Below are positions 26,307-44,810 of a DNA stretch of 64,000 nt, piece after piece (position 1 is the first letter of the stretch; each line of letters begins with the position of its first letter). The stretch is from an uncultured virus (IMG/VR IMGVR_UViG_2773857995_000001). Taxonomy: Duplodnaviria; Heunggongvirae; Uroviricota; Caudoviricetes. Made by a program: the position numbers and the translations under genes. Where the stretch lies: positions 1 to 64,000 of IMG/VR virus record IMGVR_UViG_2773857995_000001. One strand, 5' to 3'. A model generated the notes under the pieces. The model had not been told where the DNA came from. It did not search any database and was given only the letters and a program-made list of their open reading frames with translations.

Positions 26307-27080
26307 ATGGCGGAAACTAAAATGAACGTACAACTAATCGCCCATACACTAGTTTCAGAGAAATTTGCGAAAATGTTCGCGCTTAACGAAACTGAGGACG
26401 CATTGACTGACGTTGGCGAATTATTTCGTGAGGGCGTAACTGACGGCCAAGCGGTCGCCCTAACCGCAATCAGAACGTGCTACAGCGCCAACAAGCCGTC
26501 TGAAATCGTCGCAAAGGAAGGCGCCAAGTATTTCGGCTCCAAAGCGTCAGATGGCGGCGCAGGCACCGACGCCGACCGCCTATTCCGAATGATCGTCCGT
26601 TCCGGTCACACGTCGACCCTCGAACACCTAACGTTCACCTTTGCGATTGAAGGCGTAAGCCGGGCGTTATTGGCGCAGCTTACGCGGCATCGCGTCGGTT
26701 TTAGTTTCAGCGTCCAGTCACAGCGGTACGTGCGGATGGGAAGCAATGATAAGATCGGCGGGTTTGATTACGTAATACCAGATAAAATCGATGATCCGGA
26801 AGCTGACGCCGTTTTTATCGCGGCAATGCAAGACGCACAGCGGAAATATGACGAATTGAGAGCGTTAGGAGTGCCTGCGGAAGATGCCCGCGCCGTCCTA
26901 CCGCAAGCAGCCGCAACTAATCTCGTAATGACTGTGAATCTACGGTCGTTACTCGAATTCTATTCGAAACGTAAGCCGGGCAAAGGTGCGCAAAAGGAGA
27001 TCGCTGACCTAGCGGAAGCCTTGCGTCAGGAAGTCGTTAATGTAGAGCCATGGACGAACCAATTCTTCGAGGAGGTGTAA
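26307..27080 (+). CDS. thyX: Flavin-dependent thymidylate synthase
   Basis: GHTSTLEH; QLTRHRVGFSFSVQSQRY; EDARAVLP; AQKEI. Confidence 0.95.
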   Translation: MAETKMNVQLIAHTLVSEKFAKMFALNETEDALTDVGELFREGVTDGQAVALTAIRTCYSANKPSEIVAKEGAKYFGSKASDGGAGTDADRLFRMIVRSGHTSTLEHLTFTFAIEGVSRALLAQLTRHRVGFSFSVQSQRYVRMGSNDKIGGFDYVIPDKIDDPEADAVFIAAMQDAQRKYDELRALGVPAEDARAVLPQAAATNLVMTVNLRSLLEFYSKRKPGKGAQKEIADLAEALRQEVVNVEPWTNQFFEEV

Positions 27081-27082
27081 GC

Positions 27083-27619
27083 ATCGGTATCCTAACGAAT
27101 TTCACGCTAACAGCGCAGCTATTCTCCGGACATTGTCCGGCAGAGCAGCCGCCAAAGCCGCCATGGCTTACGCCAGAGGAAGCGGCCATACAACGCAACG
27201 AAGAATTAACGAAAGAGATAACGAAAAAGGACGCGCAGATACAGGCGCTTGTGGACGAAATCAAGGCGCTGAAGAAAGCGAAGAAGCCGACCGCCACTAA
27301 AACGTCAGCATGGCGGACTTTCACCGCAACAGCTTATACGGCCTTTTGTGCGGAAGGCTGCACCGGCATCACCAAAACGGGAGTCGACGTCAGCCATTCG
27401 ATCTATTACGAAGGAGCGCGCGTCATAGCGGTTGATCCGTCTGTGATTGCGCTTGGCTCTACGGTTGAAGTCCGGCTCGCTGACGGATCGAGCTTTCGGG
27501 CAAAGGCGATTGACACGGGAAGCGCAATTAAAGGCGCACGGCTCGACCTATTGGTCGCGAATGAAGCCGACGCAGTACAGTTCGGCCGGCAGTCGGTAGA
27601 ATTGCGGGTGATCAAATGA
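27083..27619 (+). CDS. 3D-domain protein (cell-wall/lytic transglycosylase-like); proposed ATC start
   Basis: ATAYT..GITKTG..IAVDPSVIALGS..AIDTGSAIKGARLDL; GAGGAGG 7 nt before ATC. Confidence 0.8.
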   Translation: MGILTNFTLTAQLFSGHCPAEQPPKPPWLTPEEAAIQRNEELTKEITKKDAQIQALVDEIKALKKAKKPTATKTSAWRTFTATAYTAFCAEGCTGITKTGVDVSHSIYYEGARVIAVDPSVIALGSTVEVRLADGSSFRAKAIDTGSAIKGARLDLLVANEADAVQFGRQSVELRVIK

Positions 27620-27790
27620 AAATCGAATATGTTCCGGAATTAGACGCTTACCGCGTAGGGGCTTATCACAGCAGATAGAGAGGTTGCCGAGGAATTTCTA
27701 CGGATGGCGGAGGAACTCGCAAAAGCCGGGCATATGGCGCGAGATATACCGGAACCAAAATCGCGACCGGAGTGCGTAAAACGAAAATAA
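27616..27790 (+). pseudogene. Small gene apparently frameshifted at GGGG (27658-27661)
   Basis: MKIEYVPELDAYRVG stops early; +1 frame continues LITADREVAEEFLRMAEELAK... to TAA 27790. Confidence 0.4.
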
Positions 27791-27806
27791 ACGGGAGGTT
27801 GAACTA

Positions 27807-28262
27807 ATGAAACGGATTTTAGACGCATGCTGTGGAAGCCGTATGTTCTGGTTTAATAAGCAGCACGATGATGTTTGCTACATGGACATACGGCAACTAA
27901 GCGATACATTAAGCGATGGTAGAAAGTTAGAGGTGAGCCCTGATGTATTAGCCGACTTCCGAAACATGCCGTTTGAGGACAATTCGTTTTATCTAGTCGT
28001 TTTTGATCCTCCACACTTACTTAAAGCTGGCGAAGGTTCTTGGTTGGCCAAGAAGTACGGAAAGCTTGAAGAAAATTGGAAATATGATATTGCGCAAGGG
28101 TTTAGAGAATGTATGAGAGTGCTGAAACCAAACGGCACGCTTGTTTTCAAATGGAATGAAGATCAAATCAAATTAAGCGAGATTCTTAAAGCCATAGATT
28201 TTAAACCGCTATTCGGAAACCGGAGAAGTAAAACACATTGGCTTGTGTTTATGAAAGATTAA
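27807..28262 (+). CDS. Small SAM-dependent (amino-type DNA) methyltransferase
   Basis: ILDACCGSRMFW; VVFDPPH; RVLKPNG. Confidence 0.85.
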   Translation: MKRILDACCGSRMFWFNKQHDDVCYMDIRQLSDTLSDGRKLEVSPDVLADFRNMPFEDNSFYLVVFDPPHLLKAGEGSWLAKKYGKLEENWKYDIAQGFRECMRVLKPNGTLVFKWNEDQIKLSEILKAIDFKPLFGNRRSKTHWLVFMKD

Positions 28263-28278
28263 ATAGGAGGGCGATATT

Positions 28279-29244
28279 ATGACGAAAACTAACGAAAAAA
28301 TTCACGTATTGGCTGACGAATCACTTGGCGGAATCAAACGCGAATATGTAGAGGTCGATAGGAAGGCGAAGGTTGGCGATATGGTAGTACTTCCAGGCGA
28401 GGGCAATTCGGCAGAGCATGTTGTAGAAGTCCGAGGTTTTGAGGGCGACTATAAACTCGAAAGCGGGTTTTATATACGTCAGGATTTCGTAAATACTCTC
28501 GAACCGACCAACATCGTCCACATTGACGGACCTGACGGTACGGAGCGCTACGAAATGGTCGACCGCAAGGCGGAAGTAGGCGAGAAGATTGTCGTTGTAG
28601 ATGACGAGGATTCTTCGGAGGAGTTCGGAAATTTTCGAATTGGTGAAGTAGGTACGGTTGAAAGCTACGCAACGGATGACACTTACTTCGGTGAATACGC
28701 TAATGTGCGAGTGTCGGACGAAAGGGATATTCCACTATATTTACATGAGTATCGCGTCCTTGTCCCGTTAGAATCCTCCGAAGAACAACCGCAGCCGTCC
28801 GACCCGATCGACGTTATCGCTAACCTAGCGACGCGTGTTGCGGAATTGGAACGTGAGAATAAACGGATCAAGGAAGACCTCGGATGGGACGAAATGGGTC
28901 CGGGTAGAATCGCCAATCTACGGAATGACGTTTCGGATATTCGCCACGATATCGCTAAGCTGGAGGATAGAATCGTACACGATTATGCTACAAACGAGGA
29001 TGTGACCGATTTTCTATACGAAAAAGTTAAACGTCTACAAGACGAAATCGACACGCTGCACAAAGACAACCGGAGGCACGGCGAAGAATTAGCGAAAATT
29101 AAGGATCGTATTGACGATTTTCAAGACGCTGAAAATGACCGGATCTACAATCTTTACGCCATTACAAACGGTAAGAGGGATGAAAAGGTGTTCACAGCCG
29201 AAGAGGTTGCCGCACTTCTTAACGCAATGAGGGAACGCCGATGA
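28279..29244 (+). CDS. Phage protein with duplicated beta domain plus coiled coil
   Basis: YVEVDRKAKVGD and YEMVDRKAEVGE repeats. Confidence 0.7.
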   Translation: MTKTNEKIHVLADESLGGIKREYVEVDRKAKVGDMVVLPGEGNSAEHVVEVRGFEGDYKLESGFYIRQDFVNTLEPTNIVHIDGPDGTERYEMVDRKAEVGEKIVVVDDEDSSEEFGNFRIGEVGTVESYATDDTYFGEYANVRVSDERDIPLYLHEYRVLVPLESSEEQPQPSDPIDVIANLATRVAELERENKRIKEDLGWDEMGPGRIANLRNDVSDIRHDIAKLEDRIVHDYATNEDVTDFLYEKVKRLQDEIDTLHKDNRRHGEELAKIKDRIDDFQDAENDRIYNLYAITNGKRDEKVFTAEEVAALLNAMRERR

Positions 29245-29801
29245 AGATCGCCCTCACCGCACCACTTCGCGCAGGCAAGTCGCTGGCCGCAACGTATATC
29301 TCGCTTCACTACGATTTCCAAGCGTTCGCATTCGGCGACGAACTAAAGGACGCATTCCACCGAGCATTCCCTAACGTTCCGAGGAATCCGAAGCCACGCG
29401 CTCATTACCAAGAGTTCGGACAGTGGGCGAGGAAACAATTCGGAGAGGACGTTTGGATCGACGCTCTCATGCCGAAAATAGCCGCCTATCTCGAACGCCA
29501 TCCTTGCTCATGCGGCAATAACACGTCACTGAAGAATCGCGTAATCATAGACGATTGCCGGCAGCCTAACGAATATCAGCGTCTGAAGGACGAAGGTTTC
29601 GTATTTATCCGCATAACAGCACCGGTCGATCTCCGTATTGAACGCGCTAAAAAAGCCGGCGATGCTTTCGAGCTTGCCGACTTAGACCATCCGACTGAGC
29701 TTGCCGTCGATAGTTTCGAAGTTGATTACGAAGTTGAGAACGTAGGCGAGCCGGAAGAGTTATACGCAAAGCTGGACGAGATTATGGCGGAACTTATATA
29801 A
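29241..29801 (+). CDS. Deoxynucleotide monophosphate kinase-like
   Basis: P-loop APLRAGKS; IIDDCRQPNE; HPTE. Confidence 0.8.
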   Translation: MKIALTAPLRAGKSLAATYISLHYDFQAFAFGDELKDAFHRAFPNVPRNPKPRAHYQEFGQWARKQFGEDVWIDALMPKIAAYLERHPCSCGNNTSLKNRVIIDDCRQPNEYQRLKDEGFVFIRITAPVDLRIERAKKAGDAFELADLDHPTELAVDSFEVDYEVENVGEPEELYAKLDEIMAELI

Positions 29802-29813
29802 GGGGGACGACAT

Positions 29814-30896
29814 ATGGGCGACTTTAACTTAACGCCGCAACTGCCGGCAAATGGACTGACGGTACTCGAACTATTCTGCGGAGGAGGACTCGGCGCAATT
29901 GGATTTAAAGCGGCCGGCTACGATATTGTAAAGGCGCTGGACTTCGATAAGAATGCCGTCAAAGCCTACCGCCACAATTTCGGTGATTACGTAGAACAGG
30001 CGGACATTAACGAAATTGATATCGATAGCTTGCCGGACACAGACGTAATCTTCGGCGGTCCTCCGTGCCAAGACTTCTCGGTTGCGGGTAAAGGCGCGGG
30101 AGCAGATGGCGAACGCGGTAAATTAATCTTCCGTTACCTCGAAATTATTGAGCGCAAGCAACCGAAAGCCTTCGTATTCGAAAACGTGAAGGGGCTGATT
30201 ACGAAGCGACATCGCCCAACATTCGATGCCCTTATCGAAAGATTTAACGAAATAGGTTACGAGATTAGTTGGAAAGTGCTGAGCGCGTGGGATTACGGAG
30301 TAGCCCAGAAGCGAGAGCGAGTGTTCATCGTTGGAATACGAAAAGACCTCGGAATCACTTTCGAGTTTCCGAAGCCGTTAGAAGGCGATTATCAAACGAA
30401 GGTATTACGGGATGTTATCGGAGATCTGCCGGAGCCGGGAGTTCAGCTAAACGATAAGCAGATCGCATACTTAGACCGCAATCCGGCATCAGTTGCGAAA
30501 AATCGTCCGGTTACGATGGGAGAGCCTTCGCGAACTATTCCGGCAGTTATGGGCAAAGGAGTTCCTTACGGTTTGTTTTACGCTAACCACGATGAAAAAT
30601 CTTACTGGACGCCAAAAAGCGAATACACCTACGATCAAGCTAATCGCGTTCAATCGATGGATAAACCGTCGAATACAATTCCAGCGCATCACAACAACGG
30701 TCAGCCGATTCATCCGACCGAAGCACCACGACGTTTCACAGTCCGTGAATGTCTCCGAATCCAATCTGCGCCCGATACTTACGTCCTGCCAGACGATATC
30801 TCCTTATCGGCACAGTATCGGATTGTGGGAAACGGAATCGCTTCGCGTGTTGCGTGGTATGTAGGGCGAGCTCTTGCGGAACAGCTACTCGTCTAA
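29814..30896 (+). CDS. C5 cytosine DNA methyltransferase (orphan)
   Basis: ELFCGGG; GGPPCQDFS; FENVKG; QKRERVF; RECLRIQ; VGNG. Confidence 0.95.
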   Translation: MGDFNLTPQLPANGLTVLELFCGGGLGAIGFKAAGYDIVKALDFDKNAVKAYRHNFGDYVEQADINEIDIDSLPDTDVIFGGPPCQDFSVAGKGAGADGERGKLIFRYLEIIERKQPKAFVFENVKGLITKRHRPTFDALIERFNEIGYEISWKVLSAWDYGVAQKRERVFIVGIRKDLGITFEFPKPLEGDYQTKVLRDVIGDLPEPGVQLNDKQIAYLDRNPASVAKNRPVTMGEPSRTIPAVMGKGVPYGLFYANHDEKSYWTPKSEYTYDQANRVQSMDKPSNTIPAHHNNGQPIHPTEAPRRFTVRECLRIQSAPDTYVLPDDISLSAQYRIVGNGIASRVAWYVGRALAEQLLV

Positions 30897-31271
30897 CTGA
30901 AACGCGTATGTGTGCTTCGGATAGGCCAGGTACGGTTGTTTAGACGCCTCGCCATCCCCGATCAAATAATAGCGTTGCGGAAGCTTATCGACATCAATGC
31001 CGACCTTGCGTAAGAACGGCCTAGCCGACACGTTGCCGCGCTTATCGAACTTAAACGGCTTGACGTCCGGCTGATTAACGAGTTCGGGCTTTCCGACCAC
31101 AATGCGGTTTTCGTCCGCATCATAGGCTACCGTCAGATAAAACGGACCGTCCGCAGGTAATCCGATGATTCGCCGGGCACCAGCCGAAATAAACAAACGT
31201 CGATGCTTTTCGATTGTTATATACGCTTTGAGGTTGCGTTCAAAGTCGTTTGATATCCACGTAAGAGCCAT
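30885..31271 (-). CDS. Putative AbrB/MraZ-like swapped-hairpin protein
   Basis: AAGGAG SD; own promoter; ITIEKHRRLFIS and FKFDKRGNVS segments. Confidence 0.55.
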   Translation of the reverse strand: MALTWISNDFERNLKAYITIEKHRRLFISAGARRIIGLPADGPFYLTVAYDADENRIVVGKPELVNQPDVKPFKFDKRGNVSARPFLRKVGIDVDKLPQRYYLIGDGEASKQPYLAYPKHTYAFQLDE

Positions 31272-31302
31272 ATCGAATCTCCTTACGAAAGTATTTACGT
31301 TA

Positions 31303-31332
31303 AGTATAGACGGATTAGTTACCGATAGTCAA
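31303..31332 (-). promoter_or_regulatory. SigA promoter for 30885-31271
   Basis: TTGACT-18-TATACT on minus strand. Confidence 0.65.
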
Positions 31333-31373
31333 CAGTAGTGTGCGGATTGTTAACGAAAAAGGAGGCGGTTGTT

Positions 31374-31763
31374 ATCGGAAAAGTCAAAATCGATCTACAC
31401 CGAAAGGATCGCGAATTTGAAACGACATATGCGCTAGACAATGCGGAGGGCGTCAAAACGTTGCTCTCCGATTATCCGAAGTTCGTCAGCCGCAAACGAC
31501 TCGGAGAATACGAAGCTGCCGAAGTGCTGCTCGATCTGCACAACGCGATTGAGCTTGCGTATCTGACCGACAGGCAGCGCGAAGCTATCCGGCTTGTATA
31601 TTTCGAAGACCTGACGCAAGTGGAGGCAGGGAAACGGATGGGGATCGGGCAGGATGCCGTGTTTAAACATATCGATGCTGCTGCGGATAAGATCGCGGAT
31701 ATTTACTACTATTGGGCGGGACATGGCGAAGGATACTCGATGGGAGGACGAATTAATGGATAA
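31374..31763 (+). CDS. Sigma-70 region 4 HTH regulator; proposed ATC start
   Basis: LTDRQREAIRLVYFEDLTQVEAGKRMGIGQDAV; AAAGGAGG 8 nt before ATC. Confidence 0.8.
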   Translation: MGKVKIDLHRKDREFETTYALDNAEGVKTLLSDYPKFVSRKRLGEYEAAEVLLDLHNAIELAYLTDRQREAIRLVYFEDLTQVEAGKRMGIGQDAVFKHIDAAADKIADIYYYWAGHGEGYSMGGRING

Positions 31764-32244
31764 AGCACTATTGCACGAAATGATTACCGAATTATATCAA
31801 CGAACAAAGGCCGGAGAATTGGATCGTATTGAACGTATTAAGGAAATTAACGCACTTGTGGAAGCCTACCACGATTCAGTCGGCAAATCTCCGGACTCCG
31901 CCGCACTTGAACGTATGGCGAATCTTATTATCTACGAGGAGCTTTCGGACCCTCATCCGGATAAAATGGCTCGCGAAGAGTATCCGATTATGAGTGAAAC
32001 CCAACGGGAGGAACGTATTAAGTCGGAAGCGTCCGAAAAACTTGCCGAAGAGTACGGTGCAGATGGCCGAAATTATAAAGTTCCGACGCGAAGAAAACGT
32101 TCTTCTTATGAATCTAAGTTCGTTGACAAGGCGGCTAGATCGCGAAATAAAGAACGCCGAAAACGATATAACGATTTCGTAAAAGGAAAATCCGAAGGAC
32201 AATTTACGGTCAATATCGCAACCGGCGAAAAAATTATTCATTAA
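31756..32244 (+). CDS. Conserved phage protein
   Basis: GGAGG SD; EELSDPHPDKMAREEYPIMS. Confidence 0.7.
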   Translation: MDKALLHEMITELYQRTKAGELDRIERIKEINALVEAYHDSVGKSPDSAALERMANLIIYEELSDPHPDKMAREEYPIMSETQREERIKSEASEKLAEEYGADGRNYKVPTRRKRSSYESKFVDKAARSRNKERRKRYNDFVKGKSEGQFTVNIATGEKIIH

Positions 32245-32332
32245 TTGTTCCGTTTTAATCCGTTTTGCTGGCTATACGTTATGAGGGCGCCAAATCCGCG
32301 CTCTTTTATTTTGCGAAAAAGGAGACGATATT

Positions 32333-33133
32333 TTGAAAAGATTACGAGTAGTAAACGCAGAGACAGGCGAAGATCTATCGACAGACTACACGCTAAGGCA
32401 TCGGAACCAGGATGAAGCTTTCCGGGAACAGCAAAAGCAGACGACGGACAGACGCGACTTTTCCAACGCCAATATGTCTAATATTCACGAAGTATATGAC
32501 GCTCTCACAACGGCCCAGTGCGGGTATTTGATGTTGCTGCAATGCTACGTCGACTATAACGGTGTTCTCGTTAAATCTAGCCGCGATAAAACTCCGATGA
32601 CCACGGCGGATATGATGTCCGTTCTACAGCTCGTAAAAAAGCCGCGAACGTTTTACGATTTCTTGAGCGCGTGTACTAAGCACGATATTATTCGGGAGGA
32701 AAACGGCATATACTCGGTGAACGAGCGCTACCACTTCAAAGGTAACTTCGGTAGCCAGTACGTTGTCAAATTGTATACCGCGAAGATTAAGAAGGTATAC
32801 AGCGAAGTGAAGGCGACGGACATCGGCCTGATTTACCGGATGTTGCCGTTCATTCACTACGAAACAAACGCTTTATGCGCCAATCCTTTCGAAAAGAATC
32901 CGAAGCATATCCGTTGGTTCAACAAGAAAGAGCTTGCGGCGGCGATCGGAGTAACGCCGGATACGCTTGGCCGGCGGCTGAAGCAGATGAAATTCGATGG
33001 GGAGTTCGTTGTCGCGCGAATAAAGGTCGGCAGCGAACCTGAACGATATACGTTCAATCCTAACGTGTTTTATCGACAATCCAAGGCGCCTGATAAGACG
33101 CTGCTTGCGATGTTTAACGTTAAGAAGCCGTAA
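32333..33133 (+). CDS. RepL-like/plasmid-type replication protein with two HTHs
   Basis: VVNAETGE start; YSVNERY and YTFNPNVFY motifs; KKELAAAIGVTPDTLGRRL HTH. Confidence 0.55.
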   Translation: MKRLRVVNAETGEDLSTDYTLRHRNQDEAFREQQKQTTDRRDFSNANMSNIHEVYDALTTAQCGYLMLLQCYVDYNGVLVKSSRDKTPMTTADMMSVLQLVKKPRTFYDFLSACTKHDIIREENGIYSVNERYHFKGNFGSQYVVKLYTAKIKKVYSEVKATDIGLIYRMLPFIHYETNALCANPFEKNPKHIRWFNKKELAAAIGVTPDTLGRRLKQMKFDGEFVVARIKVGSEPERYTFNPNVFYRQSKAPDKTLLAMFNVKKP

Positions 33134-33328: not shown

Positions 33329-34756
33329 CTATAACTTTAACCAGTTTGCGAGCATCTTGTCTTTTGATTTGAAATCCTTTGCGATTTGCGCCAGATAGCC
33401 GCTGATTTCTTCTAAATCTGAAATCGTGTCTTGTAATGAAGCGATATATGCCGCTTCGGCATCGACATCGTAAAACAGCGGATTCCCTTTTTTATCGAAC
33501 GACTGCGCCAAATCATTCAGCGTATTGTTTACATCATCGAGCGTAAGCTGATCGTATAAGCCGTGACCGACCTGGCGATAGGTATCGTATTTCAAATCGC
33601 TTATCGCAGCGTCATGTTCCTGGTAGGCGTTTTCCGCTTCTCTTTTCATCGTACGCAGGTCGTTTATAATCGCATTTACTTTTTCCGCAAGCTGCTTAGC
33701 GACTTCGGGGGTGACTTTAATCGCGCCGCTCCCTGATGCCACTTCAGCCGGCAGCATTGCTTTTAAATTTTTATCGTAGACGAGTTCATCGCCGTCTATA
33801 TTCTTAATATTACCGTCTTCATCGAAGGTGAAGTTATTGCTGCCGACCCAGTGCGTATTAGGCATCCCCAAGATTGCTGTCTGAAAGAAGTACGCAGCGT
33901 TTTCGCCAATTTGATCAGTTACTTTGCCTCGCATTCTCATTTCGCGCATAGCATTCGATACAGCAGGATCTTTTGTATATATCGTCGTTCCATTGTGGCG
34001 GTCGTACTCATTCCACCAACCGGCTCCGATCATATCATCCGGATTTACGATCGACTTTACATACCGGTTGTATTCACCGTTATTGATTTCCTTTTGCTTT
34101 TCTTCGGAATGTAATTTAACGACGGAGGGATTGTTGAATGCGACGGCATAGATATCGTTGTTGACCGCACTGTATTCCGCTTCTGCACCTCCGAGTGAGT
34201 GTCCAGTCGTTGAAATGATCGTCGAGGTGCCTTTATATTTTTGTTTGATTTCTCTTATAAGATCGTCGGCTTGACCGATTTGGGACGGTTTTGTAATCAA
34301 TTTGTAGTTACCGGTGCTAAGCATAGCGTCTTGTGAGGGTGTGGAATTGTATTTTCCCAGTGTTTTGGATGTATCTTTCGCATCTTTTTCGATTATATAA
34401 TGCGTTTTCTTTTTTGGATCTTGCCCCATCACGATATTTCCACCGTCTGCTTTTACTAAGTCATCGATCGGGTCCTTTCCGGCGTCAGTACCGGCGAAGG
34501 CTACGACGACGTTTTTGGGGTTATCTGATTTAACCCACTTTCCGTTTTTCTCTTCGGCTTGTGACAGAACAACCGCATCAAGTCCGGTATCGTCATCCGA
34601 CTTAATTTTTTCAACATACCACCGAGAAGAACTACTCGTCGTTAAAGGTCTATTTTCTTTTAATGATTTTTTGATTTTGTCATAGTTATAAGAAAACCTA
34701 CTTAAATAATAATATTCTTTATCGCTAATGTTTGGAATATCGATATTCTTAGGCAT
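33329..34756 (-). CDS. Lipase-family putative toxin with C-terminal WXG/LXG-like helical domain
   Basis: VVAFAGT; TGHSLGGAEA; VAFN; DMIG; C-terminal SGAIKVTPEVAKQLA...IAKDFKSKDKMLA; GAGGTG SD before ATG 34756. Confidence 0.75.
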   Translation of the reverse strand: MPKNIDIPNISDKEYYYLSRFSYNYDKIKKSLKENRPLTTSSSSRWYVEKIKSDDDTGLDAVVLSQAEEKNGKWVKSDNPKNVVVAFAGTDAGKDPIDDLVKADGGNIVMGQDPKKKTHYIIEKDAKDTSKTLGKYNSTPSQDAMLSTGNYKLITKPSQIGQADDLIREIKQKYKGTSTIISTTGHSLGGAEAEYSAVNNDIYAVAFNNPSVVKLHSEEKQKEINNGEYNRYVKSIVNPDDMIGAGWWNEYDRHNGTTIYTKDPAVSNAMREMRMRGKVTDQIGENAAYFFQTAILGMPNTHWVGSNNFTFDEDGNIKNIDGDELVYDKNLKAMLPAEVASGSGAIKVTPEVAKQLAEKVNAIINDLRTMKREAENAYQEHDAAISDLKYDTYRQVGHGLYDQLTLDDVNNTLNDLAQSFDKKGNPLFYDVDAEAAYIASLQDTISDLEEISGYLAQIAKDFKSKDKMLANWLKL

Positions 34757-34806: not shown

Positions 34807-35127
34807 ATGAGAAAATACATAATTATCCTAATCTCCATCGTAATTATAACATTTGGAGGTATTTACATGAAGCACCAACACGATCAAAAAGTAGCAGAAA
34901 CCGAGTTGTTTAATCAGGCTAAAACTAAGATGAAAACTTTTTTAGAAAAAAACTATAAAGATATTAAAGAAATAAATTTTTCGGATTCATATGACATAGA
35001 CCCTATGGGCGGGATAACTGTAGAAGGATATATAAATGGGGATAAAAATAAAGAGTTTTTCGGTACTTATGATAAAACTAACGATGAGATAGGCATTTCT
35101 TCAGTGGACGCAGAAGAGAAGCCATAG
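34807..35127 (+). CDS. DUF1433-like membrane-anchored protein (putative immunity protein)
   Basis: N-terminal TM; FLEKNYKDIKEINF; DPMGGITVEGYING; divergent from lipase. Confidence 0.7.
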   Translation: MRKYIIILISIVIITFGGIYMKHQHDQKVAETELFNQAKTKMKTFLEKNYKDIKEINFSDSYDIDPMGGITVEGYINGDKNKEFFGTYDKTNDEIGISSVDAEEKP

Positions 35128-36822: not shown

Positions 36823-37371
36823 TTGGCGTCTATTTCTTCGTGTTATTATCGTATATTTATACGTTTATATGAATAATAATACGATAGATATGACGGTGGG
36901 AGGTCGGGTGATTATCGTCTTATTCTCAATTAGAATAACGTAATTGATAATGAACACGATCTTATTCGCACAAATCGGCCAAAAACACGACTTTATTCGC
37001 ACAACCGAAAATGGGGTTCGCGCTTACAGCCGCAAGGGATACAGCGATTTTGAGTCCGGAATTACTTCTTAGTCTTCTGAATTCGAAGACTAGCGGGAAC
37101 TACGTTTCACTCCGTCCCGCAGAAACGCAATCATGTATATTGTATAAATAATTGTATCGCGATAAAGGTCTTAATAATATCCGCGGACACGGAGGAGCGT
37201 AAGCGACGGAGTGGCCGCTATGTTTTAAAACAAACGGAAAGGAGTCCGTAAAACTAGCGAAAATAATTACGCTATCTTATCGATAACTACGCATATTTTA
37301 CGTCCGTAGTTGTCTATACGTAATAGAAGGACGTAAAGCTACGTAAACTTAACGGAAAGGAGGGCGGAGAA

Positions 37372-37761
37372 TTGGCTCGGAAACTTAGCGAAAAACAGAT
37401 CGCTGCCATAACGATTTTAGCACAGCCGAAAAGAGGCGGAATGACTTACGATCAGATTGCCGAAGAAGTAGGCGTAAGTAGGCAGACGTTATATGAATGG
37501 CGGCAGAATGATTCGTTTAATGACGAACTAAAGCGTCAGATTATGCGGAACACTCTCGATCGTTTACCGGAAGTAATGGACTCCATACCGGATCATATCA
37601 TTAACGACGGAAATGCTGCGATGTTTAGAACGCTGTTGCAGGCGCATAGTATGCTTACGGATAATGTAGTCGTAGAGAATAAGAACGGCAGCGATACGGA
37701 TATAGACGAGATGAAGGCGCAGATAGAGCGTATGAGAGCGTTGCGTAAGGATGCCGAATAG
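37372..37761 (+). CDS. Putative terminase small subunit (phBC6A51-type HTH)
   Basis: LSEKQIAAI...TYDQIAEEVGVSRQTLYEWRQNDSF. Confidence 0.7.
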   Translation: MARKLSEKQIAAITILAQPKRGGMTYDQIAEEVGVSRQTLYEWRQNDSFNDELKRQIMRNTLDRLPEVMDSIPDHIINDGNAAMFRTLLQAHSMLTDNVVVENKNGSDTDIDEMKAQIERMRALRKDAE

Positions 37762-37932
37762 TAGGCGCAGTATATAGGAAACGAATAGGATACGGAGGGT
37801 TTACGAGGGGTGACGGCGGATATTATTCTGTAAGCTGAAACCTCCTTGCGCGCGACCCTCCGATCACTTTGACGAAAGCCCATCCGTTTATGCAATATCT
37901 TATACATATCGCGCTGATCCTACCGAACATAA

Positions 37933-38121
37933 GAACGTTGATATGACGCGGTTTATACGCTGCATAAATAAAACGAAATACATAACGAAATACAACAACG
38001 AATGAACGTTGATATGACAACGATTGCGATGAACGTCAGTGTAACAGAATCCGATAGTGTTACACTCGATATACAAACGAATGAATACCGGATACACAAC
38101 GAAGGAGGGGGCCGGGGAGGG
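37933..38121. repeat. Repeat-rich region after terS (candidate packaging-site region)
   Basis: GAACGTTGATATGAC twice (37933, 38004); AACGAAATAC tandem; palindrome 38038-38066; G-rich tract 38103-38121. Confidence 0.5.
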
Positions 38122-38200
38122 AAAAACAAAATCCGCGGCTCCAGGCGCATCTTAAACGCGCATATCAAAAATTCACTTTGACTTTGCGGAGGTGCAGCCG

Positions 38201-38425
38201 ATGCCACTAACGATAAACACTGTCGAACATAACTCGAATCCTTGGTCGCATAAAACGCTCGAACAACGCCTAATCGAATCGGGCGCGTATGACCTTCGCA
38301 AGTATCGGAAAATCATCGATCTAGGAAACGGTTATAGTCGCGTCGAACCGTTGTGGACAGACGAAAGGCAGCCGCGATATGGAGATAGCGAAGAGGTCAC
38401 GGAGAAGAGGCGTAGGCTACGATAA
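38201..38425 (+). CDS. Hypothetical protein
   Basis: GGAGGTG SD before ATG 38201. Confidence 0.55.
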   Translation: MPLTINTVEHNSNPWSHKTLEQRLIESGAYDLRKYRKIIDLGNGYSRVEPLWTDERQPRYGDSEEVTEKRRRLR

Positions 38426-38435
38426 ACGATAGCAT

Positions 38436-38534
38436 AACGATTTTCGCACGCAAATTACACGAAATTAGGCGTCTTAGCCTTCGCCGAGGGTATTCGGTAG
38501 GGTAACGGTTAGGAACGCTAATTTCGTGTGATTT
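38436..38534. repeat. Long imperfect hairpin element, copy 2
   Basis: AAATTACACGAAATTAG-GCGT...ACGC-TAATTTCGTGTGATTT. Confidence 0.65.
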
Positions 38535-38588
38535 TATACGTACCGGGCGCGTACCTCCTTACATGGGGCATTGAAAACCGCGCGAAAT

Positions 38589-38943
38589 AAGAGGCGAGCG
38601 TTCGGAGCGCTTAACCTGACAAGAGCAACAGAAACGGCCTCGCGGAAGGATTATAACCGGTCTTACCTTCCGAAAAACCACGTCGCCCAGCCTTGAGGCG
38701 GCGGGTGTTAATATTCAGTACGTTCATTTCTTTGCAGAATGAGCACGTATCAGGAGTGACGGGGTGGCCGTCCCTACTGTACGTTCCGCAGTCCGGACAC
38801 GCTGGTCTTGCGGATACAAGGATTGAAAGCAGCATTCTCTGGCACCTTCTTACCGGCGGTTTACCGGATTCGCGGGTCCGGTAGAAGTCCGTCTTCCCAA
38901 ACTACACTCGCATATATTTTGGGAAGGCAGACCTCGCCTCTTT
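38589..38943 (+). ncRNA. Candidate ~350-nt multi-stem structured RNA
   Basis: Closing helix AAGAGGCGAG/CTCGCCTCTT enclosing about eight hairpins; G-U pairs mostly favour the + strand. Confidence 0.6.
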
Positions 38944-39100
38944 CGCCCTCATATTTTCTAAAATATTTACCATTCGCGCTTTTAAATCTTTCGAAAATAG
39001 CGAACAGATGGTATAATATTCCCTGAGAGGGTATATACTAGCACAAGCTGTATTCAAATCAGGAGGTGCTGGGTATATGAGAAAAGAGGGGGAGAAAGAT

Positions 39101-39241
39101 ATGAACGCATTAGCTTCAAAGAATTCCTTCAAGCCTTTGGATAAAAAGAAAAAAGCGTTATTAAAGAAATTCGTCGGTAGCTCATCATCAAAATTAGATT
39201 TGAACAAGGTCAGAGATTCCTGGAAATATGATAAAGATTGA
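39101..39241 (+). CDS. Small basic protein, putative antitoxin (46 aa; 54 aa from ATG 39077)
   Basis: GGGGAG SD; overlaps PIN start; TGgTATAAT promoter at 39009-39017. Confidence 0.6.
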   Translation: MNALASKNSFKPLDKKKKALLKKFVGSSSSKLDLNKVRDSWKYDKD

Positions 39242-39797
39242 TTTTAATCGGAATTTTCGAGGGTTTTCCAATAAAGAGAAAATCTTGTTAGACACAGGCA
39301 TTATACTCGCTCTGGCAAATGAGTATGATGCTTGGCACAACACAGTCAATAACCTCTTTGAAACTCACATTTTATCTGATGAAGACGATGAAAACAGTAA
39401 AGCGATTTTTCTTTTTGTTAATCCATTAATTATTAACGAGGTAACCCATCTAGCAGGTCGTCCTCTTGAATCTTACCGAAGAAAGAAACCCAAGGAAGAC
39501 TTTTCGAACATCAACCCTGAAAAAGTGGTCGATGAAACTATCAGCAACATAGAAGAGTTAATAGATAGTGAGGTTTTTCTAGTAATTGACGGAAATAGAG
39601 AGGCGGTTATGGAGCAGTTCAAGCTCTACAAAGACTTAGGATCAGCTGACGCCGCGAACGTTGCGATAGCAAATCAGCATGGCCTAAACTTTTTAACCGT
39701 AGATAGTAGACTAGCAGAAAACATATATCATAAAAGAAATCAGTTAACGAATATTCATAAGGTATACACTACATCAGGTAAGCACAGAACTTATTAA
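39228..39797 (+). CDS. PIN-domain (VapC-like) ribonuclease
   Basis: ILLDTGII; IINEV; GSADAANVAIA; FLTVDSRL. Confidence 0.85.
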   Translation: MIKIDFNRNFRGFSNKEKILLDTGIILALANEYDAWHNTVNNLFETHILSDEDDENSKAIFLFVNPLIINEVTHLAGRPLESYRRKKPKEDFSNINPEKVVDETISNIEELIDSEVFLVIDGNREAVMEQFKLYKDLGSADAANVAIANQHGLNFLTVDSRLAENIYHKRNQLTNIHKVYTTSGKHRTY

Positions 39798-39814
39798 GTC
39801 CAACGCAATCAGAA

Positions 39815-39846
39815 CGAGGGCGATCCGAATATGGGTCGCTCTTTTT
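39815..39846 (+). terminator. Rho-independent terminator
   Basis: GAGGGCGATCC-GAATAT-GGGTCGCTCTTTTT. Confidence 0.8.
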
Positions 39847-39926
39847 GTGCTTGCGTTTTTTAGCGCAACAGAAAAGCGGCTTGCAAGATGCATGTCGCTT
39901 TATTAACGAAAAAGGAGACGATGTGA

Positions 39927-40259
39927 ATGGCGGTATCAAAGCGCGAATCAATCGGAGAAATCAACGTAAAAGTAAACGTGGAGGTATCCGAAGCCATAAC
40001 CGGACTCAAGGCGGTTCAACGCGAAGCAAAGGCGGCGACTAAGGCGCTGGCTGAATTGCGGGAGGAACAGGTGGAGATTAGCGTTGAAGAGGCGGCGCGT
40101 ACTCTCGAAAAAGCTCTCGGAAATACTAAGGTGGATGTGTCTCAGTTAGCAGAAGCGCTTCGAATACTCACTCCTAGCGAAGTTTATCGCGTTAGTGCGC
40201 AAGAAGCCGGGGAATCTTTGCGGAAACTTTTCGATGAAATCAATAGAGGCGAGCGTTGA
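39927..40259 (+). CDS. Hypothetical phage protein
   Basis: AAAGGAG SD. Confidence 0.65.
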   Translation: MAVSKRESIGEINVKVNVEVSEAITGLKAVQREAKAATKALAELREEQVEISVEEAARTLEKALGNTKVDVSQLAEALRILTPSEVYRVSAQEAGESLRKLFDEINRGER

Positions 40260-40540
40260 TGGAATTCGTAGTCATGATCGTGGATACACCGGATCAGGCG
40301 CGGATTATCGAAAGCGTATTTAAGGATCTCGACAATGATCGAATGCATTTCCGAGCCTTAGCAGTAGGGCAGGCAGCGGTCGGATGGCAGTTTAAAGGAT
40401 CGCGGCCAACCACGGTTATCCTTGCGTATAGTGAACTTAAAACGGATCAGGAGAAGAAATGGGAGCGGGAGGTCGTCGGAAACCTCGGATATGCAGACGA
40501 ACATCCTACGAGGCAGACGAAATGGGTTTCGCTTCTGTAA
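40256..40540 (+). CDS. Hypothetical phage protein
   Basis: Overlap-coupled ORF. Confidence 0.6.
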   Translation: MMEFVVMIVDTPDQARIIESVFKDLDNDRMHFRALAVGQAAVGWQFKGSRPTTVILAYSELKTDQEKKWEREVVGNLGYADEHPTRQTKWVSLL

Positions 40541-40559
40541 ACGAAAAAGCACCGAAGTC

Positions 40560-41114
40560 TTAAACCTCGATGCTTTCGTAAGCTTCCGATATCTCATCGG
40601 CCGTAATTCCGATATATCTCAACGTCTCACGCTCGCTTGAATGGTTGAGTATCGACATAATGCGCGTGATATCAACGCCATTCTCATATAGGCGGTATCC
40701 GAACGTCTTACGAAGCGAGTGCGTGCCGATGCCGCCGATCTTTTCGTAAATTCCGGCCCGTTTCGATGCGTCGTTTAAGATACGATAAGCCTGAACGCGG
40801 GTGATCGGCTTGCCTCCTCCTTGCCGGCTGGCAAAAACGTAATCGTCATCTGCTACGTCGTTGCTTATATATTCTTTAATTTCGCGTTTAACTGACGGAC
40901 TGAATGTAATCACACGTAATTTCTTGCGCTTTTTTTCTCGTATGTGTAACAAATCTTGGCCGCGGAGATCCCCGACTTTAAGCGTCAATAAATCGCTGAT
41001 ACGCAAGCCAAAAGCGGTGCCGAGTGTCAATAAAAGACGATTGCGGCCGTCCAGTGCGTTCTTCATTTTATTAAAATCGCGTTTTGACTTAATCGGGAAT
41101 ACTTCGTTTGCCAT
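40560..41114 (-). CDS. Minimal tyrosine recombinase (catalytic domain only)
   Basis: GLRISDLL; EKK; HSLRK; LNHSS; LRYIG catalytic residues; own promoter TTGACT-17-TAATAT (41185-41157). Confidence 0.9.
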   Translation of the reverse strand: MANEVFPIKSKRDFNKMKNALDGRNRLLLTLGTAFGLRISDLLTLKVGDLRGQDLLHIREKKRKKLRVITFSPSVKREIKEYISNDVADDDYVFASRQGGGKPITRVQAYRILNDASKRAGIYEKIGGIGTHSLRKTFGYRLYENGVDITRIMSILNHSSERETLRYIGITADEISEAYESIEV

Positions 41115-41212
41115 TTCGTTCACTCTCCGTAACATAAAAATGATTTTGTTACACTCATATTAACGAAAAATATAACGAAAGTCAATACGAAAAATGAAAG
41201 GAGGTAATGTAG

Positions 41213-41488
41213 TTGGTTTATGTTTTGATCTACTTACTCCTCGGAATGTTATACGCCGGTATGACGTTCAAAAGCACTCTTGGTGCGATTGTAATTCTAG
41301 GATTGAGCGGTGCCGATCGATTAAAGATCGCGAAGGGATCGGAAAACGTGTCAGATGAATTAAAGACATCGGCTCTTGCGTGTATTGTACTAGCGGTTCT
41401 CTACTCGATGTTTAAGGTCCCTTTCTATCCGTTCTTAGTTTTCTTCGACCTACTCGTAAGATCCGCGGCTAAGAAACATTCGAAATAA
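41213..41488 (+). CDS. Membrane protein
   Basis: AAAGGAGGT SD; hydrophobic helices. Confidence 0.65.
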   Translation: MVYVLIYLLLGMLYAGMTFKSTLGAIVILGLSGADRLKIAKGSENVSDELKTSALACIVLAVLYSMFKVPFYPFLVFFDLLVRSAAKKHSK

Positions 41489-41507
41489 GTGAAAGGAGGC
41501 GGTCTTT

Positions 41508-43259
41508 ATCGCATGGGTTGATGGTCGTTGGCTGAAGCGGGATGAACGCGAAGAACTCATCAACGTATTAACCGAATACCTGGACGCTCTCGACGAAACT
41601 TACGGCGATGACATTCCTGCGTCAGAGATCGCCGACTATTACGAAAAAGCGACCGAACTAGAACGTCTTAAACGGATTCATCGATGCGAAGGTAATCTAC
41701 TCGAATTCTCTATCGAATACTTCTCGGACGCACGCAACCCGGACAATGAGGGGAATTGGGAGGGATTCGATGTTACTTGCGTAGAGGAGGCTCCGGAGTT
41801 TCATCGTGAGATTACCGCCATAATGAATCGAGTTTCCAATGTTGAGACGAATGCGAAAGTCGCAGTCGCGGCGCCACGTTCGCACGCCAAGTCGACGTAT
41901 CTTTCGAAAGCCTTTCCGGTTCATGAGATTGCATATAGGCGACGGAAATACGCGATTATTATCTCGGAAACTCCAGATGTAGCGACGAAGAATATGGAAT
42001 GGATTCGAAATCAATTGAAATTCAATAAAAAATTTCGGGAGGATTTCGGGCCATTACTTTCTCCGAAAGATCAATCCAATATCATCGATAATTCAAGTGC
42101 ATTTATCGCTTGGTATCCTGATGGAGATAGTCGTAAACAGTTATCCTTGGTCGAGGCTGCTTCAACCGGCCAGGCATTGCGGGGACGTAACTGGAACGGT
42201 AGTCGTCCAGATTTAATAGTGCTAGATGACTTGGAAGATGCAAGACCTGGGGGAAATGCCAGCACGCCAGAACAACGTGCTAAATTAAAAGACTGGTTTT
42301 CTCAAACGGTTATTCCGTTAGGTGACCCAAAAGGTAAGAAAACAGCGTTTGTTTACATGGGAACCACGGTACACCAAGATTCAAACTTAATGAATGTGCT
42401 GCATAATAACCCCGACTTTGAATCAAGGATATTCCGTGCAATAATTTCACACCCAACACGATCGGATCTTTGGGAAGAATGTCGTTTAATTTATACCAAC
42501 AGAGAAAACAAAAAACGAAAAAAAGAGGCGGAAGAATTTTATAAGAAACACGAAAAAGAAATGTTAGAAGGGTCTAAAGTCCTTTGGGTTGAGGCGCAGC
42601 CGTTATTCAAGTTGATGAAATGGAAATGGACGTACGGATCTAAAGCGTTCAATACCGAGTACATGAACAACCCGATCGACGAGGAATCGATGATCTTTAA
42701 TCCGGAAAAATTCACGTATCACAACGGAAATATCGACTATATGAAGTATGACGTTTCTCTCGCGGTAGACTTCGCGATGGGGAAAGAACGCGGAGACTAT
42801 TCCGCAATTGCGATCGTCGCTGCCGATAAGGTTAGCGGCTCTATTTATGTTATAGACACGTTCGGCCAACGATTAAAGCCGGACGAATTCCTGAAGGTCA
42901 TCGTCGAAAAGGTCGTCAAGTATCAGCCGACCATAATCGCGGCAGAAGCACAGGCGGCGCAAGAATTCTTCGTCGATGAGCTGAAAAAACAGCTTACACA
43001 CGCTGGCTATCCGGCAGACACTCGTGTCAAGAAAGTAAAACACCGCAGCCGAAAAGAGCTACGTATCGAGGCGATGTTGCCTTCGATCGAAAACGGGACA
43101 ATCCAATTCGATCGGAAACACGCGCTTTTGCTTGAACAATTCGAGCAGTACGGTACGGGCGCCCACGATGACGTTATCGATGCGTTAGAGATGGCGGTTT
43201 CGGCCATTGTGAAGTCGCGTAGAAGAAAAGGCGGCAACGTTGGAAATTACCGTTACTGA
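41508..43259 (+). CDS. terL: Terminase large subunit (583 aa from proposed ATC start)
   Basis: APRSHAKST; LRG; IVLDDLED; VDFA; HDDVIDAL; frame open 105 codons upstream of ATG 41823 back to SD-ATC. Confidence 0.9.
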   Translation: MAWVDGRWLKRDEREELINVLTEYLDALDETYGDDIPASEIADYYEKATELERLKRIHRCEGNLLEFSIEYFSDARNPDNEGNWEGFDVTCVEEAPEFHREITAIMNRVSNVETNAKVAVAAPRSHAKSTYLSKAFPVHEIAYRRRKYAIIISETPDVATKNMEWIRNQLKFNKKFREDFGPLLSPKDQSNIIDNSSAFIAWYPDGDSRKQLSLVEAASTGQALRGRNWNGSRPDLIVLDDLEDARPGGNASTPEQRAKLKDWFSQTVIPLGDPKGKKTAFVYMGTTVHQDSNLMNVLHNNPDFESRIFRAIISHPTRSDLWEECRLIYTNRENKKRKKEAEEFYKKHEKEMLEGSKVLWVEAQPLFKLMKWKWTYGSKAFNTEYMNNPIDEESMIFNPEKFTYHNGNIDYMKYDVSLAVDFAMGKERGDYSAIAIVAADKVSGSIYVIDTFGQRLKPDEFLKVIVEKVVKYQPTIIAAEAQAAQEFFVDELKKQLTHAGYPADTRVKKVKHRSRKELRIEAMLPSIENGTIQFDRKHALLLEQFEQYGTGAHDDVIDALEMAVSAIVKSRRRKGGNVGNYRY

Positions 43260-43274
43260 AAGGAGGAGTTTTAA

Positions 43275-44810
43275 ATCGTAGTCATTGACCGAAATTTTAT
43301 AAACCCGTTTCAATTTGTCGTTCCGATGGAAGAAGCGATCGGATCGAAAGAATTTCAGCGCATTTGTGACGAAATCGAGCTCTACCGACGCTATGAAGGC
43401 GATCTAAACGTCTGGACCGACTACGTAAAGCCGAAAGAAATCGATTATGAACCGACGCAGATAACGATGAACTACCCCCGGAAGCTTATCGACTCGACTG
43501 CGGCCTGGCAATTCGAGAAGGAACCGAAAGTAACCGTTCCGCCGGATGTTCTCGATGATCCTGCGGATATGATTAAGCCGGGATATACGCCAAGTCCTCT
43601 CCAAGAGGAAGAAAACAGCCGGGCGAAGGCGAAAGAACGCCTGCTGACGTGGGTATGGGAAGAAAATCGGATGCACGAAAAGCTACTTTCTGCGGCAAAG
43701 GATCGGGCGATTAGTCGAACCGGCGTTTATGCTCGTCTGCATTACGATACACGTCGCGGAGAAATTAAAATTCTATGGCATCCTTCGACTGAAGTTATCG
43801 CAGTTCATAACGAATGGGATGTCGACCAACTTGACGAAGTCCATTTCGTTGCGTGGTTGGACGAAGAACAGACGAAGCTTTGGAAACTTTCGTATTATCT
43901 CGTCTGGAAAGGCGATGAAGATACCGGAAACTACGACTGTGAGATCGAAGAAGCGATCTACGATGACGGGCTCAGTCTTGTCGAGAAACGAGTCGAAAGA
44001 AAATCGATGGGGCTCGACTTTATTCCGGTCGTACACATTCCAACGGAGAAACTTTCGGGGCAGACAAGCGGCTTCAGCGAACTTGAAAAGCTTGTCGAGA
44101 CGGCCGACGAGCTTGACCGGAAGCTATCCGACTACTCGGACGCATTGCGGTTCGAAATGTTCGCGATCACTCTGCTAACAAACGTCGAGTACGATCCGAA
44201 AAATCCGTTTAAGATTGCGCCGGGCGCCATATGGGACCTTGGCGAAACGAATAAAGAAATCGGAGAGCCTGACGCAAAGAAACTCGAGAGCGGGTTTAAA
44301 TTTAAAGAGGCGATCGAGGCGTATCTTGATCGTCTACAGAAGCGGCTTCACGAAATAAGCGAGGTTCCGATGGTTAACACTGCGGACATGAACACGGGCG
44401 GCATAAACGATATGGCGCTCAAATTGCTGTACAGTTCGATTATTTCTAAAACCCAGCGAGCATGGATCGTTTGGCAATCGCGATTACAGACGTTGAATGA
44501 GTATATTCTGCGGTACATGAAAGCCCGACAAGATCATCCTCGCTTTAAATATGAGAAAGAATGGCTTGCACAAGTTGATGACAATTACGGAAGCAAAATC
44601 GTATTCGGACTTCCGTTGCCGGAAGATCAAAAGGCTCTCGTCGAACAGTTAGGCGAAGAAATCGCCAACGAAATGGAATCGATTAAGGGCGCAATCGTCC
44701 GGAGCGGCAAGGATAATCCGGAAGCCAAATTTATGGAGATTTTACAAGAACGAAATCTGAAAAAACAGGCCGAAGATCCTTATAACGCAGCACAAGAATC
44801 AAACGAATAA
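43275..44810 (+). CDS. Portal protein (SPP1 gp6-like); proposed ATC start
   Basis: Follows terL; NYPRKLIDS motif; AAAGGAGG 8 nt before ATC 43275. Confidence 0.85.
   Translation: MVVIDRNFINPFQFVVPMEEAIGSKEFQRICDEIELYRRYEGDLNVWTDYVKPKEIDYEPTQITMNYPRKLIDSTAAWQFEKEPKVTVPPDVLDDPADMIKPGYTPSPLQEEENSRAKAKERLLTWVWEENRMHEKLLSAAKDRAISRTGVYARLHYDTRRGEIKILWHPSTEVIAVHNEWDVDQLDEVHFVAWLDEEQTKLWKLSYYLVWKGDEDTGNYDCEIEEAIYDDGLSLVEKRVERKSMGLDFIPVVHIPTEKLSGQTSGFSELEKLVETADELDRKLSDYSDALRFEMFAITLLTNVEYDPKNPFKIAPGAIWDLGETNKEIGEPDAKKLESGFKFKEAIEAYLDRLQKRLHEISEVPMVNTADMNTGGINDMALKLLYSSIISKTQRAWIVWQSRLQTLNEYILRYMKARQDHPRFKYEKEWLAQVDDNYGSKIVFGLPLPEDQKALVEQLGEEIANEMESIKGAIVRSGKDNPEAKFMEILQERNLKKQAEDPYNAAQESNE

Follow-up and report, generated by a model that had tools for sequence, protein, structure and literature searches.

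How does a tailed phage initiate translation of genes in which a very strong ribosome-binding site is followed not by a canonical start but by an in-frame ATC? This question is raised by a 64,000-nucleotide (nt) stretch of DNA from an uncultured virus (hereafter, the window; positions 1 to 64,000 of IMG/VR record IMGVR_UViG_2773857995_000001), in which the genes for the terminase large subunit (terL), the portal, a sigma-like protein, and a 3D-domain cell-wall protein share this arrangement. The source record is a single virus contig of 64,555 bases (47% GC) on which protein family searches identified replication genes, an ImmA/ImmR-like pair, and head, tail, and lysis modules. The window belongs to a temperate Bacillus siphophage similar to 268TH007: its TerL is 84% identical across all 583 residues to that of B. 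subtilis phages 268TH007, 268TH002, and phi18-2, all three share its gene order, and both 268TH007 and phi18-2 have ATC starts at terL and portal, as the window does. Phages 268TH007 and 268TH002 are described, in the available part of PMC9476937, as temperate, purified through three rounds of plaque isolation, and sequenced at >1,000x coverage. The four genes and their initiation sites, with their Shine-Dalgarno (SD) sequences, are laid out as follows.

41492..41507, + strand: terL ribosome-binding site, made up of AAAGGAGG, the extension CGGT, and the spacer CTTT, which ends in a U at position -1, U(-1)
41508..43259, + strand: terL, terminase large subunit, 583 codons, starting ATC GCA TGG 8 nt behind AAAGGAGG
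43257..43274, + strand: terL stop and portal SD, the TGA sharing its A with the SD (TGAAAGGAGG) and the spacer ending in an in-frame TAA
43275..44810, + strand: portal, SPP1-type, 511 codons, ATC start 8 nt behind AAAGGAGG
31374..31763, + strand: sigma-70 region-4 protein (PHROG 3512), 129 codons, ATC start with U at -1
27083..27619, + strand: 3D-domain cell-wall protein (Pfam 3D), 178 codons, ATC start 7 nt behind GAGGAGG

The four ATC sites are genuine. A preliminary description of the window had reported a strong SD and an in-frame ATC at each of these genes, and all of its coordinates were confirmed, as was its remark that the starts chosen by the open reading frame (ORF) caller lack comparable SDs. 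With a 13-nt motif taken as the anti-SD, the computed duplex reaches -16.5 kcal/mol at terL, -15.6 at the portal, -13.1 at the sigma-like gene, and -15.5 at the 3D gene, with 7-8 nt between SD and ATC, whereas the ORF-caller starts (41823, 43326, 31338, 31347, and 27050) yield only +0.7 to -4.0 kcal/mol. The window holds 37 RRGGAGG sites, and 20 codons located 7-9 nt downstream of such sites open frames of at least 100 codons; ATC accounts for four of these 20, exactly the terL, portal, sigma-like, and 3D sites. In a survey of 34 related genomes or loci, a strong SD without a canonical start was present at 258 open frames, and the codon behind the SD is ATC in 59 cases against 8.5 expected from codon usage, compared with 13 against 8.3 for ATT, 14 against 5.4 for ATA, and 6 against 3.6 for CTG; these genomes are related, their counts are not independent, and some of the ATT and ATA calls on the opposite strand are likely spurious. 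Four contig sets compared with the window comprised only DNA-level relatives, and among the differences listed none fell at the ATCs; this comparison was not used as evidence.

The terL gene, identified through PHROG 38 (E 9e-97), PF17289 (Terminase_6C), and TIGR01630, encodes an N-terminal ATPase and an RNase H-like nuclease. Its frame opens just 5 codons 5' of the ATC, and the first in-frame ATG, at 41823, lies 105 codons downstream. A tblastn search yielded 236 terL loci, 38 of which were dropped (24 with an unaligned N-terminus, 8 with no upstream sequence, and 6 truncated), and the remaining 198 were reduced to 104 non-redundant rows at 95% identity. The codon aligned to 41508 is ATC in 62 of these rows, ATG in 20, TTG in 16, GTG in 2, ATT in 2, and ATA in 1, and a last, misaligned row has its ATG one codon upstream; the alignment of homologues proposed in the preliminary description thus found ATG, TTG, and GTG at the very codon occupied by ATC in the window. 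Reducing the set at 70% identity left ATC at 18 of 37 rows, and the near-cognate starts (65/104) span Bacillaceae, Paenibacillaceae, and metagenomes. A tree built from 103 rows contains 20 changes into or out of the near-cognate state, of which well-supported branches force 16; their direction is not readable, and ATC is retained through clades of 16-28 rows.

The ATC start would add 105 codons to the TerL called from ATG 41823, and this extension, on whose conservation the preliminary description had made its proposal depend, is conserved: 11 invariant residues (W8 to E101) lie 5' of ATG 41823 in 20 aligned TerL sequences. In the structural model of TerL, residues 1-100 have a predicted local distance difference test score (pLDDT) of 79-96, and residue 106, which corresponds to ATG 41823, falls within a helix. 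A fold search aligned the P74-26 terminase ATPase from model residue 61 (Z 16.7, root-mean-square deviation 3.4, 227 residues aligned) and the Sf6 terminase from residue 99, solved terminases scoring Z 15-21, unlike a PDB sequence search with TerL, which returned no hits. Since the extension is conserved, confidently folded, and overlaps solved ATPase domains, ATG 41823 is not expected to be the main start, and initiation there is predicted to be incapable of yielding the whole enzyme. As a separate observation, an out-of-frame ATG GGT TGA (Met-Gly-stop) occupies 41513-41521 (+), 5 nt past the terL ATC, and an ATG at this +5 position occurs in 41 of the 62 ATC terL genes.

Evidence at the other three genes varies in strength. 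Because an in-frame TAA stands directly 5' of the portal ATC, the portal frame cannot begin earlier, and the 17 residues ahead of ATG 43326 are conserved (DRNFINP), also in the ATG-starting orthologues L013, L119, and L261, the first of which has its ATG at the codon matching the window ATC. Near-cognate starts occur in two portal families (8/34 and 10/45), and the Halcyone portal begins with CTG, 42 codons upstream of its annotated start. At the start codon, every orthologue of the sigma-like gene, whose position suggests a late regulator, has either ATC or ATG/TTG; the two states occur even within one pair that is 87% identical, and relatives do not conserve GTG 31338, which lies upstream. 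The ATC of the 3D gene, located 2 nt past the thyA stop (27078-27080), is present in 11 of 13 family members, but in 8 of 9 close contexts an NTG lacking an SD lies 11 codons 5' of it, the TG reading as part of a thyA Trp codon. Judged by these comparisons, ATC initiation is well supported for terL, the portal, and the sigma-like gene and moderately supported for the 3D gene, where the SD-less upstream NTG is a rival to the ATC. A fifth candidate, an ATT, is not supported.

49388..49828, + strand: tail terminator, start ambiguous between GTG 49388, ATT 49394, and ACG 49397

The preliminary description had suggested that this gene may use ATT 49394. That codon exists, but the other two are preferred: the stop codon of the preceding gene runs into GTG 49388 (GTGA; ATGA in the 268TH007 counterpart), and ACG 49397 has the stronger SD (-12.8 vs. 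-8.0 for the ATT) and aligns with the ATG of relatives.

These results bear directly on the possibility that the real starts are canonical after all, whether a downstream ATG, an upstream codon lacking an SD, or the out-of-frame AUG in GCAUGG combined with a frameshift, or that the ATCs are errors or products of prophage decay. Canonical starts are what depositors and RefSeq annotate, and both the NTG 11 codons upstream of the 3D ATC (8/9 close contexts) and the +5 out-of-frame ATG of many terL genes (41/62) could be invoked in their favor. The annotated starts, however, lack an SD and vary between records: terL and portal are 105 and 64 codons short in 268TH007, terL is 25 codons long and portal 14 short in phi18-2, and the annotated starts of NZ_CP133652 and NZ_CP062261 are 112 and 44 codons short. 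The conserved and structural terL extension, the closed portal frame, and the ATC terL genes without an NTG at +5 (L142, L246, and L182) are also hard to reconcile with canonical initiation, and infectious 268TH007, sequenced at >1,000x, carries both ATCs, which argues against error or decay. For terL, portal, and the sigma-like gene this alternative is largely refuted, and as a whole we regard it as highly improbable.

Beyond the codon itself, the surrounding sequence changes along with it. Phylogenetically independent pairs of terL loci with near-cognate (n = 65) and canonical (n = 38) starts revealed that three features covary with ATC, namely a lengthened spacer, U(-1), and GCA in the second codon position, an association that is new here. 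U(-1) precedes 54/65 near-cognate but 7/38 canonical starts (pairs 8.9:0.2, median p 0.004), GCA follows 44/65 vs. 3/38 (pairs 12.3:0.4, p 0.001), and the spacer is at least 8 nt in 57/65 vs. 22/38 (pairs 6.4:0, p 0.03). An endonuclease family has the same second-codon pattern, with GCA in 3/3 ATC genes and GCG in 11/12 canonical ones. In E. coli, pairing of U(-1) with A37 of the initiator tRNA is reported to favor initiation (PMC10018350, in its available part), so that U(-1) is most simply read as compensation for a weak codon. An SD of -12 kcal/mol or stronger accompanies all 62 ATC terL sites, whereas 6 of the 20 ATG sites have weaker ones, and the canonical starts themselves lean toward a weak codon (TTG in 16/38 vs. 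16% genome-wide, p = 9e-5).

Three further candidates were considered at this site. Reading AUCG as a four-base start was rejected, as it leads into the wrong frame and to a stop within a few codons. A decoy mini-ORF at the out-of-frame +5 AUG is found at 36/65 near-cognate vs. 13/38 canonical starts, but the independent pairs give p 0.73. Avoidance of CGCG was rejected as the sole reason for GCA, because GCG after internal ATC codons (274/788 vs. 44% overall) is reduced too mildly to account for 4/65 at the starts. Of all tetramers, the genome avoids TGCA, CGCG, and GGCC most strongly, and a C5 methyltransferase gene is located at 29814-30896.

The codon could also have arrived by tolerated drift, a very strong SD freeing the start codon so that ATG or TTG wanders to ATC through CpG-favoring mutation or through quasi-palindrome templating by the SD extension (GCGAT to ATCGC), with selection asking only that some protein be produced. 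The genome does over-represent CpG strongly (odds 1.66) and deplete TpG (0.75), 66% of window Ile codons before G are ATC, the start codon switches often on the tree, and ATCGC finds its reverse complement in the SD extension, in canonical orthologues as well (in-silico hairpin -4.19 vs. -4.39, p 0.59). Composition falls short of the observed preference, however: ATC makes up 62 of the 65 near-cognate terL starts but 825 of 1,519 internal Ile+G codons in the same genes (54%), and it is held through clades of 16-28 rows. U(-1), GCA, and the spacer shift along with ATC, and U(-1) is enriched even where its palindromic partner is missing (19/25 vs. a 29% background). The absence of near-cognate starts from high-copy genes (0/166) also speaks against drift, although it demonstrates only that such genes cannot afford it. 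Drift therefore seems to us quite unlikely as the explanation.

RNA structure and translational coupling could instead be the main throttle, with AUC mimicking the anti-SD and folding onto the SD extension, and with ribosomes that finish terL and thyA going on to start portal and 3D. At the window terL, GCGGU can pair with AUCGC in a weak tetraloop hairpin (-4.5 kcal/mol); in general, ATC gives a local fold of -4.4 kcal/mol, vs. -2.9 for ATT, -1.9 for ATA, and -2.5 for ATG, and a GRT-4nt-ATC motif is present in 31/62 vs. 4/35. Upstream stops lie within or adjoin the initiation sites of the portal, 3D, and tail terminator genes, the terL stop touching the portal SD and the thyA stop ending 2 nt ahead of the 3D ATC, but this is not so for the sigma-like gene or for terL of 268TH007, where the gene ahead is on the opposite strand. 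The motif does not reach significance in independent pairs (6.1:0.9, p 0.125), folding of the -30 to +30 region is similar for all codons (ATC -9.0, ATG -8.5, TTG -8.5), and the window portal site hardly folds at all (-0.1). Since canonical orthologues share the GCGRU/AUCGC fold potential, the fold may be a by-product, or an origin route via templated mutation; as the main throttle, we judge structure or coupling very unlikely.

Two further loci serve as comparisons for the question of which genes carry these codons.

37372..37761, + strand: probable terS, terminase small subunit (HTH_Tnp_1_2 / phBC6A51 type), TTG start with a strong SD
44904..46812, + strand: genes for the scaffold and the major capsid protein, starting with ATG; high-copy group used for contrast

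An HTH_Tnp_1_2 protein carries the terS annotation in KLEB27-1. Near-cognate starts were counted in 53/86 terL, 18/79 portal, and 3/69 terS genes, two of these last three being rule artefacts with an ATG at the next codon. In contrast, scaffold, capsid, major tail, and decoration families include none in 166 genes, 160 of which start with ATG; three of the six family labels were assigned from position or sequence and not from a library match. The phage-wide layer proposed in the preliminary description finds partial support: in the window, 4 of 77 called genes have ATC and terS has TTG. In relatives, near-cognate starts are also found on genes for DNA polymerase, a Cas4-like exonuclease, a RuvC-like resolvase, an endonuclease, a ribonucleotide reductase, methyltransferases, and a DnaC-like protein, the orthologues of these replication and nuclease genes having a canonical codon at the matching position. 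Under a single rule, near-cognate starts were detected in 40/760 phage genes vs. 2/245 host-type genes (400 kb from two chromosomes), and ATC in 29 vs. 0, a contrast that is indicative only since the phages were picked by terL and are related.

Individual CTG, ATA, ATT, or ATC starts were seen at L003:3742, in DNA polymerase genes of G014 and G016, in resolvase genes of G010, G015, G016, and W03, and in exonuclease genes of G010, G015, G017, and W03. In these relatives, the base following CTG starts is mostly A (9/13) and that following ATC starts G (31/42). The DNA polymerase genes of G001 and G015 encode ~943 residues vs. ~750 in relatives, possibly through an intein or other insertion.

We conclude that the AUC sites are almost certainly true near-cognate starts, and we propose that selection has probably kept them as a throttle, set separately for each gene, on products that are low-copy or harmful in excess: here the packaging ATPase-nuclease, the portal, a regulator of transcription, and an enzyme acting on the cell wall. 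While the start positions and the gene-class bias are observed, low output and its purpose are what we infer from them, and in this sense the low stoichiometry of packaging proteins suggested in the preliminary description is supported. The comparisons place the N-terminus at the ATC. In the proposed mechanism, and from established knowledge, the very strong SD would hold the 30S subunit while the host fMet-tRNA decodes AUC despite a mismatch at the third position, for an output of roughly 1-10% of AUG. This range is in line with reported values of 1-2% of AUG in E. coli (available part of 10.1101/063800) and, in S. aureus, ~10% where AUU or AUA follows an extended SD (available part of PMC13009471). 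At terL, pairing of U(-1) with A37, the 8-nt spacer, and an A-ending second codon may then compensate, so that some output would be retained at a low level; orthologues would have the alternative solution of TTG, or of ATG behind a less strong SD. ATC may be kept over ATT because, with G at +4, ATT would read ATTG and thereby offer a competing out-of-frame TTG at ideal spacing, and because the genome favors CpG.

Several points weigh against such a throttle or temper the evidence for it. More than a third of the terL orthologues (38/104) have canonical starts, many behind equally strong SDs, and SD strength does not covary with ATC in independent terL pairs (p 0.63). U(-1) is hardly more frequent at ATC starts outside terL than in the background (32% vs. 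29%), and the window portal and 3D genes do without it. The terL tree was built with FastTree only, and two of the dropped rows, L010 and L028, have an in-frame ATG immediately 5' of the ATC, at a contig edge. Finally, genes with non-AUG starts can be highly expressed, as noted in the available part of PMC5499595.

The same codons could serve a switch instead of a throttle, with AUC starts tying packaging and late genes to host initiation factor 3 (IF3) and releasing them jointly once IF3 runs short or a phage product blocks it. IF3 is reported to reject AUU, AUC, and AUA, and infC, its own gene, starts with AUU or AUC (PMC5499595, available part); correspondingly, host-type infC loci, 4 of 5 of which could be parsed by alignment, have ATT in three cases and ATC in one at the aligned codon behind GGAGG. 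The efficiency of the ccpN AUA start changes with the medium (PMC13009471, available part), and near-cognate starts are denser in phages than in host-type genes. Because IF3 rejects these codons and infC shares the layout, any AUC start, including those of the phage, is likely to be discriminated against by default. The coordinated response to IF3 suggested in the preliminary description is not supported: terL and portal start states are independent (9/42 vs. 7/25, p = 0.57), the at least 16 terL switches freely substitute codons that IF3 accepts (TTG and ATG), the window contains no tRNA and no Met or Ile tRNA was called in loci L001-L284, and no translation-factor family was recognized among 75 (Pfam), 48 (NCBIfam), and 30 (PHROGs) window proteins, many proteins having no family. 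A joint IF3 switch therefore seems unlikely. As an aside, the Paenibacillus infC L289 has an apparent ATC start behind GGAGG with U at -1, and three further infC genes from Bacillales (L285, L287, and L288) have ATT.

A more elaborate reading would join these elements into one composite signal (extended SD, 8-nt spacer, and U-AUC-GCA) that evolved repeatedly in Bacillales phages, its AUC mimicking the anti-SD and folding over the SD, so that virion assembly (packaging motor, portal, and late regulator) would be released only when IF3 discrimination drops through the host state or an unrecognized phage protein. We consider this reading unlikely.

Near-cognate initiation as a mechanism is already known, from infC and from S. 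aureus ccpN and cvfC1. The closest parallels are S. aureus infC, cvfC1, ccpN, and citZ, which, according to the available part of PMC13009471, likewise combine a Firmicute ribosome and a very strong extended SD with a conserved AUH codon missed by annotation; those are four chromosomal genes with AUU or AUA and measured output, whereas in the phages AUC dominates. Unlike the S. aureus set, the phage AUC marks essential morphogenesis genes, flips repeatedly with TTG and ATG, and covaries with U(-1) and GCA. infC (AUU/AUC) and E. coli pcnB (AUU) share the codon class (PMC5499595, available part), and infC also the layout of SD, spacer, and ATT/ATC; unlike infC, the phage start is not fixed across orthologues, and since the phage products are TerL, portal, sigma region 4, and 3D proteins and not IF3, no autoregulatory loop is expected. 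The A37 pairing in the available part of PMC10018350 comes from E. coli reporter libraries, whereas the phage evidence is natural covariation at one gene, from which the mechanism would follow only by inference. AUC has been used as an engineered weak start in B. subtilis (PMC10303841, available part), and start-codon choice in the Halcyone group is described without such starts in the available part of PMC6070908. A literature search, which left subscription papers and supplements largely outside its reach, found no report of conserved AUC/ATC starts at phage terminase or portal genes. In the SPP1 annotation, gene 2 and gene 6 both start at ATG, the former behind a weak SD (-4.6). In lambda and other tailed phages, terminase subunits are kept low through poor initiation signals, namely canonical codons with a weak ribosome-binding site or coupling; the packaging motor there is likewise made scarce at the translation step.

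Several neighboring features of the window deserve mention. From terS to terL the distance is 3.7 kb (region 37372-41507), and the genome end probably falls inside this gap, the 268TH007 genome beginning 1,752 bases before terL and having 310-bp terminal repeats. A 9-codon ORF 5' of terS (36914-36943, +) begins with ATC behind GGGAGGTCGGGTGATT and is a possible leader peptide, and a 61-codon ORF just 3' of terS (37820-38005, +) has an ATA start with an SD and is conserved in 4 close genomes. At 39077-39797 (+), a small ORF precedes a weak match to a PIN domain and a terminator-like repeat, and the segment resembles an inserted toxin-antitoxin or defence moron. Just 5' of terL, a short tyrosine recombinase (184 residues, catalytic domain only; 40560-41114, -) is kept in many relatives. 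A Lipase_3/SA1320-like gene (33329-34756, -), divergent from a DUF1433/DUF1310 gene (34807-35127, +), is reminiscent of an antibacterial effector-immunity cassette, and the right end (63031-64000, +), with a GNAT acetyltransferase and another ORF, is probably host flank or a moron. A promoter scan returned 8 sites vs. 6.7 expected and was not used as evidence.

Gene finders miss the ATC starts. In this phage group, the GenBank and RefSeq starts of terminases, portals, nucleases, and polymerases are off by up to 112 codons, and such records would spoil cloning, structure prediction, and clustering. The covariation of U(-1) with the start codon provides evolutionary support for pairing with A37 of the initiator tRNA. 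With ATC at 62 of 104 orthologues and at least 16 switches, terL offers an extensive set of naturally occurring AUC starts within a single essential gene, and the old question of why near-cognate starts exist, as a simple throttle or for IF3-linked control, can be tested directly in B. subtilis with a plaque-forming phage.

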